From: Candidatus Sulfotelmatobacter sp.
GTDB taxonomy: Bacteria; Chloroflexota; Limnocylindria; Limnocylindrales; CSP1-4
Assembly (NCBI GenBank): GCA_035622975.1
Contig: DASPUH010000133.1
Location: 966-64,965 of the forward strand
Length of the DNA stretch: 64,000 nt
Direction of reading: 5' to 3'
Both the position numbers and the translations under genes were made by a program. Positions 1,264 to 17,441 of the stretch are shown here, piece by piece (positions within the stretch are counted from its first letter, which is position 1; each line of letters opens with the position of its first letter). The notes below the pieces were generated by a model. It did not search any database. It was not told where the DNA came from and worked only from the letters and a program-made list of their open reading frames with translations.

Positions 1264-2901
1264 TCAGCTGATCTCGGCCACGTCGGCCAGTTCGCCGGCG
1301 AAGATCTCCCGGAAGCGGGCCACGAGGTCGGGGTCGTCGGCCTTCACGGGCAGTGGCGGCAACGCCTCCAGGTTCGTCGTCACGCAGCGCACGCCATAGG
1401 CCCGCCCGAGGACGGCCTCGACGCCGGCTTCCAGGGCGGCCCGGCGCTGCTCGGCCTTCTCGCGATAGAACGGCGTCTCCTCGGGGAAGCCGAGGACCAC
1501 GATACCGTCGCGCACCTCCACGGGGCGGCAGGCCGCCACGACCGGCTTGAGCATGGGATTGGCGCTGACCCGCTCGACGAACTCGGGCCAGCCTTGGCGC
1601 AGGCGCTCCAGCGCCTCCTCGCCCGGAGCGGGTGCACTCGAAGCGGCCTGGGGTGCCGCGGCGAGCGGTGCCACGGCCACCGGCGCCGCCTTGGCCGTGG
1701 GGCCGGCCTTGGCAGGCGCGGCGGCGGCAGCCCTCGCCGGCTTCGGCGAGTCCGTCCTGGCGACGGGGGTCGTGACGGCGGAAGCGGCGACGGTCGCTTT
1801 TGCAGGCGCTGCGGCAGCCCCCGCTGGCACGACCGGCGCGTCGCCGCTCGACCCCTGTTCGAGCAGGATGAGCTCGAGCTGGAAGCGGTAGCCGCCGGCG
1901 CCGATGCGGTTGGCGTCGAGGGCCGCCAGCCGCCGCGCGATCTCGGCGATGCGCGTGGGCGCGACCGCCGCCAGCGTGGGGTCTTCCGTCGAGCGGCCGG
2001 CGAGGCGCTCCACGAGGAGTCGCCGCATGGCGACCACGACCTGGTCGGCGAAGCCGATGAGGTCGCGGCCCTGGGCTTCCAGGACGTCGAGCAACCGGAT
2101 GCCAGCCAGCGGATCGGGGCGGACGAGCGCCTCCACGAACGCGCGCACCGCCTGCTCATCCGCCAGGCCCAGCATGTCGCGCACGGCAGCGACGGTCAGC
2201 GTCTGGTCGTCGGCCGCGAGGAGCTGGTCCAGCATGGACTCGGCATCGCGCATGCCGCCCGCGGCGAGGTCTGCCACCAGGGCGACGGCGGCCGGCTCGG
2301 CGTTCCGCCCCTCGTCGGCCAGGATGCGCTCGAGCTTGCCCGAGATCTCCGCGACGGTCAGCGGCCGGAAGGTGAAGCGCTGGACTCGTGAGAGGACGGC
2401 CGGCCGGATCTTGCTGGGCTCGGTGGTGCAGAAGATGAAGAGGACGTCGTCGGGCGGGTCCTCCAGCGTGCGCAGGAGGACGTCCCAGCCCTGGGTGATG
2501 CGCTGGACCTCATCGATGATGAAGACCTTGCGGCGCAGGTCGGCTGTGGCCGTGTAGACCCGCGGCAGCAGCTCGCGCATGTCGTCGACGGTGTTGTTGG
2601 AGGCGGCGTCGATCTCCACCACGTCGAGGGCCCGGCCCTCGCGGATCGCGGCACAGGCCTCGCACGTGTCGTCCGGCTCGCCGTCGACGGCGTTCGGGCA
2701 GTTGACGGCCTTGGCCAGGATGCGCGCCATCGACGTCTTGCCCGTGCCACGCGGACCGACGAAGAGGAAGCCGTGGCTGAGCCGGTCCAGGCGAACGGCG
2801 TTGCGGAGCGTCTCGACGACCGCTGCCTGGCCCACCATCTGACCGAAGGTCTGGGCCCGCCAGCGGCGGTAGATGGCCAGGTGGGACGTCGCGCTGGGCA
2901 T
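1264..2901 (-). CDS. dnaX: DNA polymerase III subunit gamma/tau
   Basis: Walker A GPRGTGKTS, clamp-loader box motifs, Ala/Pro-rich tau linker. ORF 1264..3114 trimmed to ATG at 2899-2901 (MPSATSHLAIYRRW...). Confidence 0.9.
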   Translation of the reverse strand: MPSATSHLAIYRRWRAQTFGQMVGQAAVVETLRNAVRLDRLSHGFLFVGPRGTGKTSMARILAKAVNCPNAVDGEPDDTCEACAAIREGRALDVVEIDAASNNTVDDMRELLPRVYTATADLRRKVFIIDEVQRITQGWDVLLRTLEDPPDDVLFIFCTTEPSKIRPAVLSRVQRFTFRPLTVAEISGKLERILADEGRNAEPAAVALVADLAAGGMRDAESMLDQLLAADDQTLTVAAVRDMLGLADEQAVRAFVEALVRPDPLAGIRLLDVLEAQGRDLIGFADQVVVAMRRLLVERLAGRSTEDPTLAAVAPTRIAEIARRLAALDANRIGAGGYRFQLELILLEQGSSGDAPVVPAGAAAAPAKATVAASAVTTPVARTDSPKPARAAAAAPAKAGPTAKAAPVAVAPLAAAPQAASSAPAPGEEALERLRQGWPEFVERVSANPMLKPVVAACRPVEVRDGIVVLGFPEETPFYREKAEQRRAALEAGVEAVLGRAYGVRCVTTNLEALPPLPVKADDPDLVARFREIFAGELADVAEIS

Positions 2902-2997
2902 CCTCGGATGATACGGCCGGGCGCGCCGCGACCGGGCGGGAGGGTTGCCGTGCACCCTCCGTCGACCACGACGTCCGCGTGCCCACACGGGAGATCG

Positions 2998-3104
2998 GCT
3001 CGGATCAGGCCGGTCCGCGGCACCCGGCGAGCAGCGCTTATCGCTGCTTCCTTCCGGACCTGACGAGGTTCGCGCGTCGCCGCTGCGCGGGACCCGATCC
3101 TCAA
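2998..3104 (-). ncRNA. ffs: signal recognition particle RNA (4.5S/ffs-type, small)
   Basis: Minus strand carries the invariant domain IV motif GUCAGGUCCGGAAGGAAGCAGC (plus 3041-3062). A closing helix joins GGAUCGGGUCC with GGACCGGCCUGAUCC. Located immediately upstream of dnaX, the conserved position. Confidence 0.7.
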
Positions 3105-3231
3105 CGTCGATCACCCCGGCGGCATCCGCGAACGCGGGCCTCGGGAGGGGATTCAGTCCTGCTGGAGCGGATTGCAGGTACAGGGCACCGCTAGTTCCCC
3201 ACCTAGCACGGCCCGCGGATGATAGTCCCTC

Positions 3232-9722: not shown

Positions 9723-9798
9723 TGGCGCGCCCGGCGAGACTCGAACTCACGGCCTTTAGGTCCGCAACCTAACGCTCTATCCACTGAGCTACGGGCGC
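9723..9798 (-). tRNA. tRNA-Arg, anticodon read as GCG (unusual)
   Basis: Minus-strand 76-nt cloverleaf GCGCCCGTAGCTCAGTGGATAGAGCGTTAGGTTGCGGACCTAAAGGCCGTGAGTTCGAGTCTCGCCGGGCGCGCCA. Anticodon stem TTAGG/CCTAA, loop TTGCGGA. Backbone nearly identical to E. coli tRNA-Arg. Confidence 0.75.
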
Positions 9799-9827
9799 AC
9801 GCGTGTCGCGGAGGGGCCCGGAGGGAG

Positions 9828-9920
<93 letters not shown>

Positions 9921-10162
9921 CTGGGCCCGAACGCGCCGGGATGATAGCACGCGACCCTGGGCCGACCGATGCGACCGGGCCGCCGTCGCGGGGTGAACAG
10001 CAGGGGTTCGTAGCGAGGACGATCGACCGGATCGAGTCCGTTCTGAGGGCTCGCCGGGCGGTTCGTTCGACGGCTCGAACATGAGGAATTCATGGTGGCG
10101 AGGCACGGGCCACCGCGTCCTCGCAATGAACGGCTGATGTTCAAGGACGGCCGGCGGACGTG

Positions 10163-10230
10163 GGACGAGGACTGCCCGCGGCGCCCGAGGGGACGAGGAC
10201 TGCCCGCGGCGCCCGAGGGGACGAGGACGC
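10163..10230. repeat. 28-nt tandem direct repeat (about 2.3 copies) GGACGAGGACTGCCCGCGGCGCCCGAGG
   Basis: GGACGAGGAC recurs at 10163, 10191 and 10219 (period 28) in the untranslated region upstream of the aro leader. Confidence 0.7.
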
Positions 10231-10319
10231 CACGCGAGACGCCCCGCGGGACCCGCGGCGGGACGCTCGAGGCGCCGCTGATTGACGCCCGGGCCACGCT
10301 CGATTACCGTTCGGGAGCC

Positions 10320-10358
10320 ATGCTCCGCACCTGGTACTTTCTCGGCCCGGCACGCTAG
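10320..10358 (+). CDS. putative aro-operon leader peptide MLRTWYFLGPAR (consecutive Trp-Tyr-Phe codons)
   Basis: ATG 10320, TGG-TAC-TTT at 10332-10340, TAG at 10356-10358. SD-like GGGAG 2 nt upstream (short spacer). A TTGACG-N17-TACCGT promoter-like pair at 10284-10312 would make the transcript nearly leaderless. It is the C-terminal part of a longer, unlikely 88-aa ORF (10092..10358). Confidence 0.5.
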   Translation: MLRTWYFLGPAR

Positions 10359-10423
10359 ACCGCGGGTGACCCGCGGGGACGGGTCGTGTCGGGCGAGCAG
10401 AGGTCTCGGACCTCTGCTTTTTT
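10359..10423 (+). promoter_or_regulatory. transcription attenuator for the aro operon: hairpin CCGCGGG-TGA-CCCGCGG then intrinsic terminator GCAGAGGTC-TCG-GACCTCTGC followed by TTTTTT
   Basis: 7-bp/3-nt-loop hairpin at 10360-10376 immediately after the leader stop. 9-bp/3-nt-loop hairpin at 10397-10417 followed by six T (10418-10423). This lies 65 nt upstream of the DAHP synthase start. A U-run terminator is conspicuous in a 70% GC genome. Confidence 0.6.
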
Positions 10424-10487
10424 GTTCCCCGGACGCTGGAAGGCCACCCGGGATCGGATCGCATCACCTGACGCCAAGGGGCGAGCG

Positions 10488-11567
10488 ATGTTCATCGTCA
10501 TGTCGACGCACGCGACGACCGAAGAGATCAACACCGTGAAGAGCCTCATCCTGGCCGAGGGGATGCAGCCGCATGAGAGCGTCGGCTCGGAGCGGGTCGT
10601 GATCGCCCTCGTAGGCGATGACATCGGGGCGCAGCGCGATCGGCTGGTGAGTCGCTTCTCGCAGCTGCCGGGGGTGGAGACGGTCACGCCCATCACGCGG
10701 CCCTTCAAGCTCGCCAGCCGCGAGTTCCACGCCGACGACACGGTCATCCGCGTGGGCCCGGCCACGATCGGCGACGGCTCGCTGACGGTCATGGCCGGCC
10801 CGTGCTCGGTGGAGAGCCGCGAGGTCGCCCTGGAGACGGCCGCGGCGGTCAAGGCCGCCGGCGCGACGATCCTGCGAGGCGGGGCGTTCAAGCCGCGCAC
10901 CAGCCCGTACTCCTTCCAGGGCCTGGGCGTGGAGGCCCTGCGCTACCTGGCGGAAGCGCGGGAGGCGACCGGGCTGCCGGTCATCACCGAGGTCATGGAG
11001 CCGAGCCAGGTGGAGGTCGTCAACCGCTACGCCGACATCCTCCAGATCGGCACGCGCAGCATGCAGAACTACTCGCTCCTCACGGCGGTCGGGCGAGTCG
11101 CCAAGCCGGTCATGCTCAAGCGTGGTTTCGGCGCGACGATCGAGGAATGGCTGATGTCGGCCGAGTACATCATCAGCAGCGGCAACCCCAACGTCATCCT
11201 CTGCGAACGCGGCATCCGCACCTTCGAGACCTACACGCGCAACACGATGGACATCACGGCCGTGCCGCTGCTGCACCACCTGACCCACCTGCCCGTCATC
11301 GTCGACCCGTCCCACGCCACGGGCAAGAGCTGGCTGGTCAAGCCGCTGGCGATCGCCGGCGTGGCCATCGGGGCGGACGGCGTCATGGTGGAGGTCCACC
11401 CTCGGCCGGAGGAGGCGCTCTCGGACGGTGAGCAGTCGCTCACCTTCGACGGCTTCCACGACCTGATGGCCGCGATCGTCCCGCTCCACGAGCAGATCAG
11501 CCGCCTGCCCCGCGACCCGCTCCTGTCAGGCGCCGCGCTCGCCGTGGGCAGCGCGTCCAAGCACTGA
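10488..11567 (+). CDS. 3-deoxy-7-phosphoheptulonate (DAHP) synthase, type I-beta, with N-terminal ferredoxin-like regulatory domain
   Basis: 359 aa from ATG 10488 ([20 protein letters not shown]...). Catalytic core [19 protein letters not shown]...IVDPSHATG matches KDO8P/DAHP synthase I-beta, with an N-terminal ACT-like extension as in Thermotoga-type DAHPS. Confidence 0.85.
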
Positions 11568-11580
11568 ACAGCACCGCCCC

Positions 11581-12942
11581 ATGAGTGCGACCACGACCCA
11601 TCCGGCCGACCTGGCCCTCGTGCCCCAGGCGACCCGCCTGCGTGGCCGGCTGCGCATGCCGCCCGACAAGTCGATCACCCACCGCGCCCTGCTCCTGGCC
11701 GCCATGGCGACGGGGGCCTCACGGATCGCCGACGCCTCCGGCGCCCTGGATCCACGCAGCACCGCGGCATGCCTCCAGGCCCTGGGCGTGCGCCTCGAGC
11801 CCACCCATCGGGGCGCAGGCGCGGTCGACTGGCGGGTCGAGTCGCCCGGCTGGTCGGCGTGGCAGGCCCCTCGCCAGCCGCTCGACTGCGGCAACTCCGG
11901 CACCACGATGCGCCTCCTCGCGGGCCTGCTGGCAGGCACGAACCTGGACGCGACGCTCGACGGCGACGCGTCGCTGCGCGGCCGGTCGATGCGACGCGTC
12001 GTGGAGCCGCTGCGCGCCATGGGGGCCACGATCGGCGCCGGCGGCGACACGGCCCTCCCCCCGCTACGGGTCGCAGGTCGGGCACCCCTCCGGCCGATCG
12101 TGTGGACGACCGAGGTGCCCAGCGCCCAGGTCAAGTCGGCGATCCTGCTGGCCGGCCTGGCCGCCGACGGCGTGACGTCGGTGACGGAGGCGACGGCCAC
12201 CCGGGACCACACCGAGCGGATGCTCCGCGCCCGCGGGGTCCAGATCCGGACGGCCACCGTCGGGGACGGCGCCCAGCGGGTCTCGGTCGCCGGCGGCCAG
12301 GCCGTCGGGACCCTGGACGAGACGATCCCCGGCGACATCTCCGCGGCCGCCTTCTGGCTGGTGGCCGGAGCCGTCCACCCGGACGCCGAACTGGTCCTCG
12401 AGGGCGTCGGCATCAACCCGACCCGGCGGGCCGTCATCGACCTGCTCCGAATGATGGGGGCGTCGATCGCGGAGCACCCGGCGGGCGGCGCCGATCTCGG
12501 CGAACCGACGGCCACGCTGACCGTGCGGAGCAGCGAGCTGGAGGCGCGGGACCTCTCGGCGGCCGACGTGGCTCGCTGCATCGACGAGATCCCGGTGCTC
12601 GCCCTCGCCGCCGCCTGCGCACGCGGCCGCTCCCGATTCAGCGGCGCGGGCGAACTGCGCCACAAGGAGAGCGATCGGCTCGTCGGCATCATGAAGGGGC
12701 TGTGTGCCCTGGGGGCCGACGTGACCCTGGACGGCGACGACCTGATCGTGCAGGGCGGCGCCGGACGGACGGCCTTCGGGCTCCGCGGTGCCGCGGTGCA
12801 GAGCCTCACCGACCACCGCCTCGCCATGACGTTCGCGGTCACGGGCCTGGTCGCCTCGGGTACCACGGCCATCGACGCCGCGTCGAGCGCGGCGATCTCA
12901 TATCCCGGTTTCTTCTCCGACCTGGAAAGGGTGCGCGCATGA
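11581..12942 (+). CDS. aroA: 3-phosphoshikimate 1-carboxyvinyltransferase (EPSP synthase)
   Basis: 453 aa. LDCGNSGTTMRLLAGL, ...RHKESDRL..., two-domain EPSPS fold motifs. Confidence 0.9.
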   Translation: MSATTTHPADLALVPQATRLRGRLRMPPDKSITHRALLLAAMATGASRIADASGALDPRSTAACLQALGVRLEPTHRGAGAVDWRVESPGWSAWQAPRQPLDCGNSGTTMRLLAGLLAGTNLDATLDGDASLRGRSMRRVVEPLRAMGATIGAGGDTALPPLRVAGRAPLRPIVWTTEVPSAQVKSAILLAGLAADGVTSVTEATATRDHTERMLRARGVQIRTATVGDGAQRVSVAGGQAVGTLDETIPGDISAAAFWLVAGAVHPDAELVLEGVGINPTRRAVIDLLRMMGASIAEHPAGGADLGEPTATLTVRSSELEARDLSAADVARCIDEIPVLALAAACARGRSRFSGAGELRHKESDRLVGIMKGLCALGADVTLDGDDLIVQGGAGRTAFGLRGAAVQSLTDHRLAMTFAVTGLVASGTTAIDAASSAAISYPGFFSDLERVRA

Positions 12943-13793
12943 GCAAGCGAGTCGTCCTCATCGGCCACCCCGTCGCTCACTCCATGTCCGCGACGATGCA
13001 GCAGGCCGCGTTCGACGCGGCAGGCCTGGACGTGCAGTACGAGCTGCTCGATCGCACGCCGCTGCAACTGGCCGCCACGGTGGAGGAGCTGCGCGACGAG
13101 GCGTACCTGGGCGCCAACGTCACGATCCCCCACAAGGAGCGCGTCGCCCCGCTCATGGATCGCGTGGCCGACGAGGCTCAGGCGACGGGCGCGGTCAACA
13201 CCGTGACCCGGGAGGGCAAGCGGCTCATCGGCCACAACACGGATGTGGGCGCCTTCCGCGTCGCGCTGGACTCGCTGGTAGGCCGCCAGAAGATGCCCCG
13301 CACGGCGGTCGTGCTGGGCGCCGGGGGCGGCGCCCGGGCGGTCGTCCACGGTCTCATCACCGAGGGCTTCCAGCGCATCATCGTCTTCAACCGCCACCTT
13401 CACCGGGCGGAGAACCTGGTCCGCTTCTTCGGCCGCAGCGCGGCCCACATGGAGCTCAAGGCGATGCCCTGGCACGAGTCGGTCATCGAGGCCGAGCTGG
13501 CCAAGGCCAAGGTGCTGGTCAACGCCTCCGCCGTCGGCCTGGGCACCGACGTCTCGCCCATCCCGGCCGAGCTGCTGCCGCCGGAGATGCTGGTCCTTGA
13601 CCTCATCTACACGCCGCGCGAGACCCGCCTGCTGCGCGACGCCAAGGCCGCAGGAGCCGCCGCGACGATGAACGGCGAGCTGATGCTGCTGCACCAGGGC
13701 GCGGCCGCCTTCCGGCTGTGGACGGGGCAGGAACCGCCCCTGGACCTGATGCGCGAGCGGCTGGACGAGGCCGAGCGCTCAACGGCCGCATGA
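12939..13793 (+). CDS. aroE: shikimate dehydrogenase
   Basis: 284 aa. IGHPVAHSMSATMQQAAF, NVTIPHK, GAGGGARAV Rossmann. ATGA overlap with the aroA stop. Confidence 0.88.
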   Translation: MSKRVVLIGHPVAHSMSATMQQAAFDAAGLDVQYELLDRTPLQLAATVEELRDEAYLGANVTIPHKERVAPLMDRVADEAQATGAVNTVTREGKRLIGHNTDVGAFRVALDSLVGRQKMPRTAVVLGAGGGARAVVHGLITEGFQRIIVFNRHLHRAENLVRFFGRSAAHMELKAMPWHESVIEAELAKAKVLVNASAVGLGTDVSPIPAELLPPEMLVLDLIYTPRETRLLRDAKAAGAAATMNGELMLLHQGAAAFRLWTGQEPPLDLMRERLDEAERSTAA

Positions 13794-15043
13794 CCTTCCG
13801 CTTCCTGACCGCGGGGGAGTCGCACGGCCAGGCGCTGGGGGTGATCCTGGAGGGCCTGCCGGCGGGGGTGCCCCTCGGCGCGGACGCGATCGCGGCCGAC
13901 CTGGCCCGCCGCCAGCGCGGCCATGGCCGCGGCGCCCGCATGACGATCGAGCAGGATCGCGCCAGGATCCTCTCCGGCGTTCGGCACGGCCGGACGCTGG
14001 GCTCGCCGATCCTCCTGGAGGTGGCCAACCGCGACTGGGCCGACTGGACGCACGTCATGCAGGTCGAGCGCCTGAGCGACGAGGAGGCCGCCGAGCTCGC
14101 GGCGCTGGCCGCCGGCGGCGACAAACGGGCGCGGCCCGTGACGCGGATCCGGCCCGGCCATGCCGACCTGGCCGGCGCCGTGAAGTACGACTTCGACGAC
14201 GTGCGCGACGTGCTGGAGCGCGCCTCCGCGCGTGAGACGACGATGCGCGTCGCGGCGGGCGCCGTCTGCCGAGCTTTCCTGGCCCAGCTGGGTATCGACG
14301 TCTGGAGCTACACCGTCTCGGTGGGTGACGTGACCGCCGACCCGGCGGCACCCACGCGCGCTCGCGAGGAGGCCGAGGCGAGCCCGCTGCGCTGCCTGGA
14401 CGCCGCCGCGGAGGACCGCATGGTGGCCGCCATCGACGAGGCGCGGTCCGCCGGTGACACGCTGGGCGGGGTGTTCGAGGTGGTGGCCACGGGCGTACCG
14501 CTTGGCCTGGGCAGCCACGTGCAATGGGACCGCCGGCTCGACGGAGCGCTGGCCCAGGCCATCGTGTCCATCAACGCCGTCAAGGGCGTGGAGTTCGGCC
14601 TGGGCTTCGAGCAGACCCGGCGTCGTGGCTCGGCCGTGCACGACGTCATCACCGGTCGGAAGGATGGCCGCTGGCACCACGGCAGCAACAATGCCGGGGG
14701 TCTCACGGGCGGCATCAGCAACGGCGAGCCGATCGTGGTGCGAGGTGCGGTCAAACCGATCTCCACGCTGGCCCGTCCCCTCCCCTCCGCCGACCTGCTG
14801 ACCGGCCTGCCGGTCGACGTGGCCCACTACGAGCGCAGCGACATCAGCGTGGTGCCGGCGGCCGGCGTCATCGGCGAGGCGATGGTGCTGCTCACCCTGA
14901 CCCGCTTCCTGCTGGAGAAGACCGGCGGCGACTCGCTGGCCGAGGTGCGGGACAACCTGGCGCGCTTCCAGGCCCGCGCGGCTACCGCCATGGCATCCGT
15001 ACCCGGTGCCGAACCCGAGGCCGGCTCGGGCGGCGACGACTGA
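13790..15043 (+). CDS. aroC: chorismate synthase
   Basis: 417 aa from ATG 13790 (MTFRFLTAGESHGQALGVILEGLPAG...). Conserved GESHG and RSDISVVPAAGVIGEAM. ATGA overlap with the aroE stop. Confidence 0.9.
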   Translation: MTFRFLTAGESHGQALGVILEGLPAGVPLGADAIAADLARRQRGHGRGARMTIEQDRARILSGVRHGRTLGSPILLEVANRDWADWTHVMQVERLSDEEAAELAALAAGGDKRARPVTRIRPGHADLAGAVKYDFDDVRDVLERASARETTMRVAAGAVCRAFLAQLGIDVWSYTVSVGDVTADPAAPTRAREEAEASPLRCLDAAAEDRMVAAIDEARSAGDTLGGVFEVVATGVPLGLGSHVQWDRRLDGALAQAIVSINAVKGVEFGLGFEQTRRRGSAVHDVITGRKDGRWHHGSNNAGGLTGGISNGEPIVVRGAVKPISTLARPLPSADLLTGLPVDVAHYERSDISVVPAAGVIGEAMVLLTLTRFLLEKTGGDSLAEVRDNLARFQARAATAMASVPGAEPEAGSGGDD

Positions 15044-15052
15044 GGCGCGGCT

Positions 15053-16675
15053 GTGGAGCTGGTCCTCATCGGCCTGCCCGGCAGCGGCAAGAGCGCCGTC
15101 GGGCGCCGCATCGCCCACGCTCATCACGCCGAGTTCGTGGACCTGGACGCGGCGATCGAAGCACGCGCCGGGGCGCCGCCGGCGGCCATCTTCGAACGCG
15201 AGGGCGAGGCGGCCTTCCGGGTCCATGAGGCAGCGGCGATCGACGCCCTGGGAGAGCCCGACCGCAGCCACCCGCTGAGGCGGGTCGTCGCCACGGGCGG
15301 CGGGGCGGTCGTCGCGCCGCGCAACCGGTGGCGGCTGTTCCGCGACCGCCGCGTGGTGTGGCTCGATGCCGCCGATGGGGTCCTGGCCCGCCGGCTGGAG
15401 CGAAGTGCCACCCCGCGGCCGCTCCTCGTGGGCCGCGATCCGGTCCGCGCCCTGGAGGCGTTGCGGGCGGCGCGCCTGCGCTTCTACGCGGCGGCGCCCC
15501 GGGTCGACGCGACGGGCCGCCCGGACGAGGTCGCGCCACGCGTCGAGCGATCGCTGCGAGGCGGCGCGCCGGCCCTCACCCTGCTCGACGCGCACACCCG
15601 CGTCGGCGAGCTCGTCCTGGGCCTGGACATGGCCGGGGGCACCGTGGCCCGCGTGCTGGACGACCTGCGCGCCACGCGTGTCGCGGTCGTGTCGGAGCCC
15701 GCCGCGTGGCGCCTCCACGGGGAGCGGCTGACGGTGAGCCTGGCGGCGCCCGGTCGCCTCGTCGAACCGCTGCTGCTGCCGCGGGGCGAGCGGGCCAAGT
15801 CGTTCGCCGCCCTGGAACGCGCCGTGCGCGAACTCGCCCGGCGGCAGCACGAACGCGGCGACCCCCTGGTCACCATCGGCGGCGGAGCGGTCGGCGACAC
15901 CGGCGGCCTGGTGGCGGCGCTGTACGCGCGCGGTGTGCCCTTCATCCAGGTGCCGACGACCCTGCTCGGCCAGATCGACTCGTCCATCGGGGGCAAGACG
16001 GCCATCGACATCCCCGAGGGCAAGAACCTCGTGGGGGCCTTCCACCAGCCAAGAGCCATCGTGCTCGACGTGGGTCTGCTGGCCACGCTGCCACCGCGTC
16101 AGCGACGCGCCGCCCTGGGCGAGGCGGTCAAGATGGCCGCCCTGGGCGACGAGGCGCTCTTCGACCTGCTCGAGCGTGAGGGCCGCGCGCTCGCCGCGGG
16201 CAGCCCGGCGGCCGTGGCGTCGGGCGCGCTTGCCGAGCTCGTGGAGCGCTGCGCGTGGGCCAAGGTGGAGGTCGTGCTGGCCGACGAACGCGAGGCCGAC
16301 CGGCGGATGGCCCTGAACCTGGGCCACTCGATCGGCCACGCCCTGGAAAGCGCCAACGGTTACCACGGCCTCCTGCACGGCGAGGCGGTGGCGCTCGGGC
16401 TGCGCGGGGCGGTGGCCGTGGGCCTGGCCCTCGGCGTGACACCGGCGGCCCGCGGCCGGCGCATCGTCGCCCTGCTGGACCACCTGGGCCTCGGCATGGC
16501 CGCGCCGGCGGTCCCCGCCGAGGAGGTGCGCGTCCGCCTCGCCAGGGATAAGAAGGTCGCCGGCGGACGTCTGCGCTGGGTGCTGCCGACGGCCACCGGG
16601 ATCGCGGTCCGAGCCGACGTACCGGACGGAGCCGTGGACGCGGGACTCGCGGCGGCCCTGCGGGGCGCGGCCTGA
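15053..16675 (+). CDS. aroKB: bifunctional shikimate kinase / 3-dehydroquinate synthase (AroK-AroB fusion)
   Basis: 540 aa, GTG start. N-terminal P-loop LIGLPGSGKSAVGRRIA (shikimate kinase, about 170 aa). C-terminal DHQ synthase core (GGGAVGDTGGLVAALYARGVPFIQVPTTLLGQIDSSIGGKTAID...HGEAVALG). Confidence 0.85.
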   Translation: MELVLIGLPGSGKSAVGRRIAHAHHAEFVDLDAAIEARAGAPPAAIFEREGEAAFRVHEAAAIDALGEPDRSHPLRRVVATGGGAVVAPRNRWRLFRDRRVVWLDAADGVLARRLERSATPRPLLVGRDPVRALEALRAARLRFYAAAPRVDATGRPDEVAPRVERSLRGGAPALTLLDAHTRVGELVLGLDMAGGTVARVLDDLRATRVAVVSEPAAWRLHGERLTVSLAAPGRLVEPLLLPRGERAKSFAALERAVRELARRQHERGDPLVTIGGGAVGDTGGLVAALYARGVPFIQVPTTLLGQIDSSIGGKTAIDIPEGKNLVGAFHQPRAIVLDVGLLATLPPRQRRAALGEAVKMAALGDEALFDLLEREGRALAAGSPAAVASGALAELVERCAWAKVEVVLADEREADRRMALNLGHSIGHALESANGYHGLLHGEAVALGLRGAVAVGLALGVTPAARGRRIVALLDHLGLGMAAPAVPAEEVRVRLARDKKVAGGRLRWVLPTATGIAVRADVPDGAVDAGLAAALRGAA

Positions 16676-17100
16676 TGCGCGTCCTCGTCCTCGACGGCCC
16701 CAACCTGGACCTGCTTGGCGAGCGGGAGCCGGAGATCTATGGCCACGACACGCTGGCCGCGATCCACCAGCGGACGCGCGCCCATGCCGACGAGCTGGGC
16801 CTCCAGGTGGACTTCTTCCAGTCGAACCACGAGGGCGCCCTGATCGACCGCCTGCACCTCAGGGATTTTGACGCGGCCGTCGTCAACGCCGGTGGCCTGA
16901 CCCACACCTCCGTCGCGCTGCGTGACGCCCTGCTGGGCGTGGCGCGCCCCTTCGTGGAGGTCCACCTGACGGACCCGGCCACGCGCGAGGCCTTCCGGCG
17001 CATCAACTTCCTGCAGGACATCGCCGTTGCGTCGATCGTCGGCCACGGGCCGCGCGGCTACCTGGAGGCGCTGGACCTGCTCGCGGCACGGGCCGCCTGA
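16675..17100 (+). CDS. aroQ: type II 3-dehydroquinate dehydratase
   Basis: 141 aa, VLDGPNLDLLGEREPEIYG...FQSNHEGALID...NAGGLTHTSVALRDA. TGATG overlap with aroKB. Confidence 0.9.
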   Translation: MRVLVLDGPNLDLLGEREPEIYGHDTLAAIHQRTRAHADELGLQVDFFQSNHEGALIDRLHLRDFDAAVVNAGGLTHTSVALRDALLGVARPFVEVHLTDPATREAFRRINFLQDIAVASIVGHGPRGYLEALDLLAARAA

Positions 17101-17441
17101 TGCCGCGCGTCCGGCCCGGCGAGACGATCGAGATGCGCCGCGTGCGCCGCCGCATCGACGCGCTCGACCGGCGCATCGTGGAGCTGCTCAACGAACGTGC
17201 CCGCCTGGGGATGGCCATGGGCGAAGCGAAGGCCGAAGCCGGCAAGGCCGTCACGGACCCGGAGCGCGAGCGCGAGGTGCTGCTCCGCGTGGCCACCACC
17301 AACGACGGCCCGCTCCTGCAGGCCGACCTCATCGCCGTCTACCGCCGCATCATCGCCGCCACGCGACACCTGGAACGCAGCGCGCGCGGCCGGGGTCGCG
17401 GGCCGGCCCGGGACCGCGACGACGCCGACCCGGAACCCTGA
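17100..17441 (+). CDS. chorismate mutase (AroQ-class, monofunctional)
   Basis: 113 aa. R..ID.LDRRIVELLNERARL....K and REREVL helical chorismate-mutase signature. 1-nt overlap with the aroQ stop. Confidence 0.75.
   Translation: MPRVRPGETIEMRRVRRRIDALDRRIVELLNERARLGMAMGEAKAEAGKAVTDPEREREVLLRVATTNDGPLLQADLIAVYRRIIAATRHLERSARGRGRGPARDRDDADPEP

Follow-up and report, generated by a model that had tools for sequence, protein, structure and literature searches.

A candidate leader-peptide attenuator without a recognizable antiterminator upstream of the shikimate pathway operon of Limnocylindria (Chloroflexota)

The whole common pathway of aromatic biosynthesis is encoded in a single predicted operon within the stretch of DNA analyzed here, 64,000 nt of contig DASPUH010000133.1 (positions 966 to 64,965; assembly GCA_035622975.1, Candidatus Sulfotelmatobacter sp., placed by GTDB in the Chloroflexota class Limnocylindria), hereafter called the window. 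The first gene of the operon, which encodes DAHP synthase (DAHPS), is preceded by a short leader open reading frame (ORF) with three adjacent aromatic codons, a long hairpin (P1-P2) and an intrinsic terminator (T; Table 1). On balance, and with modest confidence, this element is read from its sequence and conservation as a transcription attenuator that depends on a ribosome translating the leader peptide and controls the shikimate/chorismate operon, in which a closed P1-P2 hairpin would correspond to read-through. An initial annotation of the window had already proposed an attenuator at this site. Its observation is confirmed and its interpretation partly supported: leader ORF, aromatic codons and terminator do form a conserved control element, but no structure that competes with the terminator was found.

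A search with the DAHPS protein against one genome per species returned 34 loci with 66–77% identity, 33 of them titled Chloroflexota, Chloroflexia or Limnocylindria. The same leader lies upstream of DAHPS in 31 of these loci, representing 31 species of Limnocylindria; of the remaining three, one is cut by a contig end and two (L030 and L031) have another gene directly upstream. The latter two, which carry uncultured-Chloroflexia titles and DAHPS proteins of 66–68% identity, have no leader, and another reading frame extends to ~50 nt from the DAHPS start. The window and its 31 relatives constitute the set of 32 leaders to which the counts below refer.

The promoter layout is shared by all 32 leaders and comprises a TTGAC[AGT] element, a spacing of 17–18 nt and a TAnnGT/CACACT hexamer, most commonly TACCGT (13/32). 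Both hexamers and the 17-nt spacing had been recognized in the window, but their coordinates lie two bases further left than first given. The -35 box scored under the threshold of a generic sigma-70 scan. The -10 box ends 9–13 nt before the start codon, so that the 5′ untranslated region would amount to only a few nucleotides, and no conserved Shine-Dalgarno (SD) sequence was found among the 32 leaders. This arrangement fits the near-leaderless transcript that the initial annotation had suggested. A second conserved promoter between the leader ORF and DAHPS was not found in the relatives, where the conserved promoter lies only upstream of the ORF.

An ORF of 11–12 codons is present in the same frame and position, with its start (ATG in 30, GTG in 2) and stop kept, in every one of the 32 leaders; that of the window, with its TGG-TAC-TTT cluster, is present as originally described. 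The encoded peptides follow the pattern M-x-x-(x)-[FYW]2-5-x-x-P-A-stop, in which Pro-Ala is invariant. Counting back from the proline (position 0), an aromatic residue occupies position -3 in 32, position -5 in 31 and position -4 in 27 leaders, and aromatic residues make up 33% of the leader peptides as compared with 3.7% of the operon proteins. The motifs WYF, FYF, FFYF, FWFY, YFWY, YWF, IYRF and IYLF are all represented, FYF being the commonest. Because aromatic residues interchange while the nucleotides differ, this variation points to selection on the meaning of the codons.

Codon choice within the cluster is also distinctive. TTT is present in every leader, whereas the ratio of TTT to TTC in the operon genes of the window is 1:52, and TAT is likewise over-used in the leaders. 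An origin of the universal TTT in pairing with the terminator 5′ arm was rejected, as judged by eye on L005, where TTC would pair no worse in the main register; slow decoding of this codon by wobble seems a more likely reason. Phe and Tyr codons are universal, whereas TGG occurs five times in the 32 leaders. The single sensor for all three aromatic aminoacyl-tRNAs that had been proposed is in this sense peculiar to the window genome, and we read the leader family as a Phe/Tyr sensor in which Trp is the exception, the window being among the few members that add it.

Automatic gene calling wrongly merges the leader into an 88-residue ORF, and there is next to no chance that the aromatic codons are simply the C-terminal end of a protein gene of that length (10092–10358). 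The long frame is indeed open in the window and was called as an 88-residue gene on metagenome contig L201 (1087–1353), but its start would lie ahead of the conserved promoter, and no Pfam match is recorded for it. Moreover, at least 10 relatives have only the 11–12-codon form open, and the longer forms differ from one another in length and sequence. The 88-residue ORF is almost certainly spurious.

The 119-nt leader of the window folds with a free energy of -64.4 kcal/mol (z = -4.2 relative to shuffled sequences). In the minimum free energy (MFE) structure, P1 encloses P2 and abuts the terminator. The 7-bp hairpin of the initial annotation is present but constitutes only P2, the tip of this longer structure, P1 having been missed. 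Across P1, P2 and the terminator, 88.5% of cells in the alignment of 32 sequences are paired, as compared with at most 46% for controls with slid partners, and P1 alone pairs in 92% of its cells. Compensatory double changes occur at 12 pairs of the combined structure, a number reached in 1 of 500 shuffles. The bulk of this covariation resides in P2, where 6 of 10 pairs show double compensatory changes; its 29 distinct sequences all fold, and chimeras with swapped arms are weaker by 3.2 kcal/mol. P1 (CCCGGCAUGA / UCGUGCCGGG) is invariant within Limnocylindria. In the terminator, the lower 7 bp (GCAGAGG / CCUCUGC) do not vary among the 32 species, unlike the upper stem and the loop. The conservation of aromatic codons and the covariation of hairpins that would be expected of an attenuator in orthologous aro leaders are thereby borne out.

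The terminator with its T6 tract is exactly as first reported, including its rarity. The T6 is the sole run of at least 5 T in the 64-kb window, which contains no run of at least 5 A, and a terminator scan found no other strong plus-strand match within 5–24 kb. On these sequence grounds, the window genome appears to be essentially devoid of canonical U-tract terminators apart from that of the aro leader. Since the upstream neighbors are minus-strand tRNA genes, the terminator does not end an upstream plus-strand gene and sits within the 5′ leader of the aro operon.

The proposed working of this leader is as follows. Transcription would start a few nucleotides before the ATG at 10320, and the 12 codons would be translated while RNA polymerase makes the next ~100 nt. 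When charged Phe- and Tyr-tRNA (in the window also Trp-tRNA) become scarce, the ribosome would park on codons 5–7, 4 nt upstream of P1-P2 (10345–10394), leaving the hairpin closed, and polymerase would read through 10395–10423 into the operon. When the aromatic tRNAs are charged, the ribosome would proceed to the last codons and the stop. Because these form the 5′ strand of P1, any ribosome that passes the aromatic codons must unzip P1-P2; with the hairpin open, the terminator would act and the transcript would end near 10423. In most relatives, the ribosome would then re-start at an AUGA sequence and run to the P2 loop. AUGA, in which the UGA stop overlaps an AUG, is found in 30 of the 32 leaders (among L004–L032, L040 and L048). 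It opens a second ORF, usually of six sense codons (26 of 30), and the in-frame stop (UAG, UGA or UAA) always falls in the P2 loop. This arrangement suggests termination-reinitiation that would keep the ribosome inside P1-P2 under replete conditions.

The assignment of the closed hairpin to read-through and the open one to termination is one that we infer from more distant relatives and from the way in which biosynthetic operons are normally controlled. Divergent leaders were found with a covariance model of the leader and a loose pattern scan of metagenomes, filtered afterward. The latter was too permissive, with only ~6 of 120 loci being true members, and its pattern included the terminator core, so that conservation of the core among its matches is not evidence. 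Divergent aromatic leaders precede the same type of DAHPS in other Chloroflexota, in one Rokubacteria metagenome-assembled genome (MAG) and on metagenome contigs (Table 1), and the family of leader, hairpin and terminator now numbers more than 40 natural variants among uncultured relatives. Two of these, from the Rokubacteria MAG (L036) and an uncultured bacterium (L044), contain five segments. Hairpin 1:2 directly follows the aromatic codons and contains the ORF stop, segment 3 pairs either with segment 2 or with the 5′ arm of the terminator, and the terminator carries a U-tract. When ribosome positions were masked and the remainder folded, a stalled ribosome gave 1:2 together with a 3:4 antiterminator, and a ribosome at the stop gave 2:3 together with the terminator. 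These folds imply that a closed first hairpin means read-through, the normal logic of a biosynthetic operon.

All other lineages have the layout of the window, with unrelated P1 sequences at the same position, 0–5 nt between the aromatic codons and P1, 0–5 nt between P1 and the terminator, and the ORF stop always within the 5′ half of P1-P2. They resemble L036 and L044 in the type of DAHPS, in the aromatic cluster ahead of an ORF-ending hairpin and in the terminator with its U-tract. They differ in that segment 3, between hairpin and terminator, is found only in L036 and L044; the 0–5 nt of the window type leave no room for it.

A search for an alternative structure in the 32 leaders employed masks over the last aromatic codon and over the whole 5′ strand of P1, as well as transcripts ending before the 3′ arm of the terminator. 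In the full-length MFE folds, P1, P2 and the terminator coexist, and P1-P2 and the terminator share no nucleotides. The mutually exclusive structures that the initial annotation expected from folding did not appear under any mask, and the classical 1:2 / 2:3 / 3:4 model was rejected because neither arm of the terminator has a conserved partner in the 32 masked folds. The antiterminators recovered from L036 and L044 indicate that this procedure can detect one where it is present. Other candidates were also discarded. Pseudoknotted or slipped pairing among four CCGG-containing strands gave, by eye, only alternative hairpins that do not touch the terminator. An ORF running from a conserved GTG in the 3′ strand of P1 through the terminator is, again by eye, not conserved, and stops early in L005. 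Downstream of the U-tract (10424–10440 and the equivalent region of the relatives), many leaders have GGCCCGAC, GCCCGG or CCCCGG, which are potential partners of the P1 3′ strand once transcription has passed the terminator; as a candidate antiterminator, this pairing forms too late to affect termination.

The sole competitor of the terminator joins the pyrimidine-rich aromatic codons to the purine-rich terminator 5′ arm and extends P1 downward. It is the basis of an inverse logic, in which one long antiterminator helix would unite the aromatic codons and P1 5′ strand on one side with the P1 3′ strand and terminator 5′ arm on the other. Any ribosome on the leader would block this helix and bring about termination, such that only an untranslated leader reads through. 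This logic is unlikely. The pairing does appear in ~27 of 32 truncated MFE folds, CUUCUACUUU resembles the terminator 3′ arm CCUCUGCUUU, and the linkers flanking P1 are short enough to be compatible with a continuous helix. Nevertheless, the gain of -6.3 kcal/mol is matched by codon-shuffled heads (-6.3) and exceeded by base-shuffled ones (-7.0), and the pairing was rejected as an antiterminator on the grounds that codon-, synonymous- or base-shuffled controls do at least as well. It is weak or absent in L001, L009, L020 and L029 and, judged by eye, weak in L042 and absent in L063, and the terminator state is favored over the resulting helix by ~7 kcal/mol (e.g., in L005). Moreover, inverse logic would shut off a biosynthetic operon upon starvation, the opposite of what is predicted for L036 and L044.

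Attenuation with the closed P1-P2 as the read-through state remains the preferred reading, and several observations weigh against it. No antiterminator sharing nucleotides with the terminator was found in the window or the 31 relatives in any mask scenario, and by thermodynamics the terminator should form in every modeled state. The sole competing pairing is no stabler than that of shuffled heads, and a stalled ribosome would in any case mask it. Within Limnocylindria, P1 and the lower stem of the terminator show neither variation nor covariation, which hints at a further constraint. The spacer between P1 and the terminator is not fixed but varies from 0 to 5 nt. The AUGA re-initiation site is missing from the window and also from L002 (…GCA CGC TAG/TGA), and the transcription start is itself a prediction. 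The proposed working accounts only partly for the universal TTT and for the invariance of P1 and the terminator core.

How a closed P1-P2 might reach the terminator is a matter of speculation. By bridged occlusion, the closed hairpin with a ribosome at its base, 0–5 nt from the terminator 5′ arm, would prevent the last and lowest terminator pairs from closing in the polymerase exit channel unless P1 opens; alternatively, P1-P2 may act on the polymerase in the manner of put RNA. Two known systems are relevant here. In pyrBI and pyrE, termination is prevented without a competing helix by a ribosome close to the polymerase, and in phage HK022 the folded nascent put RNA acts on the polymerase to prevent termination. 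The pyr leader ORF runs through its terminator, whereas that of the window ends 38 nt before it (38–51 nt across the 32 leaders). By functional analogy, the window type would have to work in one of these two ways, pyr-like or put-like. A tentative and rather doubtful proposal is that of antitermination without an antiterminator helix, in which a bridge of stalled ribosome and hairpin blocks terminator closure by steric hindrance, by an expressome-like contact or in a put-like way.

As a further alternative, P1-P2 might serve as a ligand- or protein-binding RNA, either riboswitch-like or as a cis element that modifies RNA polymerase, the short ORF being secondary. P1-P2 is large, very stable, conserved and located beside a terminator for which no antiterminator is evident, and neither P1 nor the lower stem of the terminator varies within the class. 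The probability of this alternative is nonetheless small, slightly below that of the inverse logic. Contrary to what an aptamer would show, neither P1 nor P2 is related in sequence from one lineage to the next, and there is free variation in the loops and junctions. What all lineages share besides the helices is only an aromatic codon cluster in an ORF whose stop lies within the hairpin. No Rfam family matched the region 9900–10700, even at E values up to 10.

Formation of the terminator in all modeled states would also be expected of a constitutive leaky terminator, which might set a low basal level of expression or generate a small RNA (sRNA) or peptide with a function of its own, the aromatic codons not being a sensor. 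Precedents in Sinorhizobium, where attenuator-derived sRNAs and leader peptides are reported to have functions in trans (PMC6614838, PMC7298713), lend some weight to this idea. It is nevertheless improbable, still more so than a binding RNA, as it leaves unexplained both the maintenance of aromatic and rare TTT/TAT codons at a fixed distance from P1, upstream of an aromatic-pathway operon, in many lineages and the working antiterminator predicted in relatives.

Leader-peptide attenuation with aromatic codons upstream of DAHPS is already known. In Corynebacterium glutamicum, aroR encodes an F-Y-F leader peptide upstream of the DAHP synthase gene aroF (Mentz 2013, PMC4046766; PMC11802643). Read-through of aroR rises upon Phe limitation (PMC4046766; Neshat 2014, via PMC11802643, PMC6892785). 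The likeness to the Chloroflexota leaders, which is functional, lies in an aromatic triplet (FYF or a related one), a near-leaderless arrangement and a position upstream of DAHPS. The aroR transcript is reportedly leaderless. Corynebacterium belongs to a different phylum, the Chloroflexota leader precedes the whole common pathway plus chorismate mutase, and some Chloroflexota leaders, including that of the window, contain Trp codons. We know of neither an abutting P1 and terminator nor an AUGA-initiated second ORF in aroR.

The enterobacterial attenuators trpL, pheL-pheA, hisL and thrL (RF00513, RF01859, etc.) likewise combine a leader ORF containing regulatory codons with a terminator controlled by ribosome position. 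The window type differs from them in lacking a 2:3-type antiterminator, an SD sequence and an Rfam match, in its near-leaderless arrangement, and in the location of its regulatory codons upstream of the first hairpin rather than inside it. Furthermore, the hairpin touches the terminator in the window type, whereas 11 unpaired nt separate the two in the predicted fold of E. coli thrL, and the known C:D hairpin of hisL lies ~17 nt before its terminator. Phe_leader, Trp_leader and the other curated leaders of Rfam gave no match at gathering score in the window.

In Bacillota, the same task of sensing tRNA charging upstream of an orthologous DAHPS falls to T-box leaders, which differ in binding tRNA directly and in having no leader peptide. 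The T-box model (RF00230) found no match in the window; the same search was positive upstream of the orthologous DAHPS of Paludifilum halophilum (L051, 2707–2955, 110 bits). Short MKGFFYY-like ORFs upstream of DAHPS in Syntrophomonas-type loci were rejected as members of the leader family, since these are T-box leaders in which the ORFs are fortuitous. T-box-like GGGTGGTACCACGG motifs were observed upstream of DAHPS in three such loci (L055, L058 and L074).

No description of aromatic leader-peptide attenuators in Chloroflexota was found in the literature searched. What is new is the leader family, the control of a whole pathway and, above all, the abutting design without an antiterminator and its AUGA-initiated second ORF. 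The family would extend leader-peptide attenuation to an abundant, uncultured class of soil and freshwater Chloroflexota in which U-tract terminators are almost never used, and would place the entire common aromatic pathway under one switch. Its natural variants provide a ready-made collection for asking how the position of a ribosome reaches the polymerase; should the link not be base pairing, it would constitute a new mode of coupling translation to termination.

Table 1. Features of the aro leader, operon and neighborhood, and leader peptides of divergent relatives. Positions are those of the window, except in rows for relatives (L numbers).
Feature	Coordinates	Strand	Remarks
-35 box TTGACG	10282..10287	+	TTGAC[AGT] at equivalent site in 32/32 orthologous leaders
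-10-like box TACCGT	10305..10310	+	17 nt past -35 box, 9 nt ahead of ATG
Leader ORF1 MLRTWYFLGPAR-stop	10320..10358	+	ATG 10320, TAG 10356-10358; 12 codons
Aromatic codons TGG TAC TTT, putative regulatory	10332..10340	+	Codons 5-7 of leader
P1 5′ strand GCCCGGCACGCT	10345..10356	+	Last leader codons and first stop base; MFE partner 10382-10394
P2 hairpin CCGCGGG-TGA-CCCGCGG	10360..10376	+	7 bp; tip of P1-P2
P1 3′ strand GGTCGTGTCGGGC	10382..10394	+	0-nt spacer to first terminator pair
Intrinsic terminator GAGCAGAGGTC-TCG-GACCTCTGCTT	10395..10419	+	11-bp stem, 3-nt loop, GC-rich
U-tract TTTTTTGTTC	10418..10427	+	T6 at 10418-10423; sole T-run of at least 5 in 64-kb window
DAHPS I-beta with N-terminal ferredoxin-like domain	10488-11567	+	Pfam; ATG at 10488
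EPSPS (EPSP synthase)	11581-12942	+	Pfam
Shikimate dehydrogenase (SDH)	to 13793	+	Pfam
Chorismate synthase (CS)	13718-15043	+	Pfam
Shikimate kinase-DHQ synthase (SK-DHQS) fusion	15053-16675	+	Pfam
Type II dehydroquinase (DHQase II)	16675-17100	+	Pfam
Chorismate mutase	17100-17441	+	Pfam
tRNA-Arg(GCG) and tRNA-Ser(GCT)	within 9723-9920	-	Divergent from aro leader
Signal recognition particle (SRP) RNA	2948-3211	-	RNA family scan
L042 leader peptide			MNTFFWYYT-stop
L072 leader peptide			MVRYWSFS-stop
L045 leader peptide			…YSYWFTYG…
L063 leader peptide			…DWFYAFYFTPP…
L134 leader peptide			…FAFYFTWSPPV-stop
L180 leader peptide			…YFWFWRCPPA-stop
L087 leader peptide			MVNRFLFRYPA-stop
L036 (Rokubacteria MAG) leader MGTLTRTTSSYFYFTPESAHRL-stop	2895-3046		…SSYFYFTPE…
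L044 (uncultured bacterium) leader MGKGIARSWRFYFYYFAHVCPPALK-stop	about 2334-2511		…WRFYFYYF…

The operon predicted to be under the control of this leader spans 10488..17441 on the plus strand, and the next gene encodes an M19 dipeptidase. Pfam confirms all seven genes of the common-pathway operon that the initial annotation had named. The distance from the U-tract to the DAHPS start is 64 nt in the window and mostly 25–50 nt in the relatives (range, 25–124 nt). The same locus is also present in the JGI peat/soil metagenomes 3300017974 and 3300017961. On the other side of the leader, a same-looking tRNA gene was noticed by eye just upstream in several relatives. In the window, the interval from the divergent tRNA genes to the aro promoter contains a tandem repeat (10162–10236) of a 28-bp unit, GGGACGAGGACTGCCCGCGGCGCCCGAG, present in 2.7 copies with 95% identity; within this array, another copy of the locus, from a metagenome, has a single base difference.

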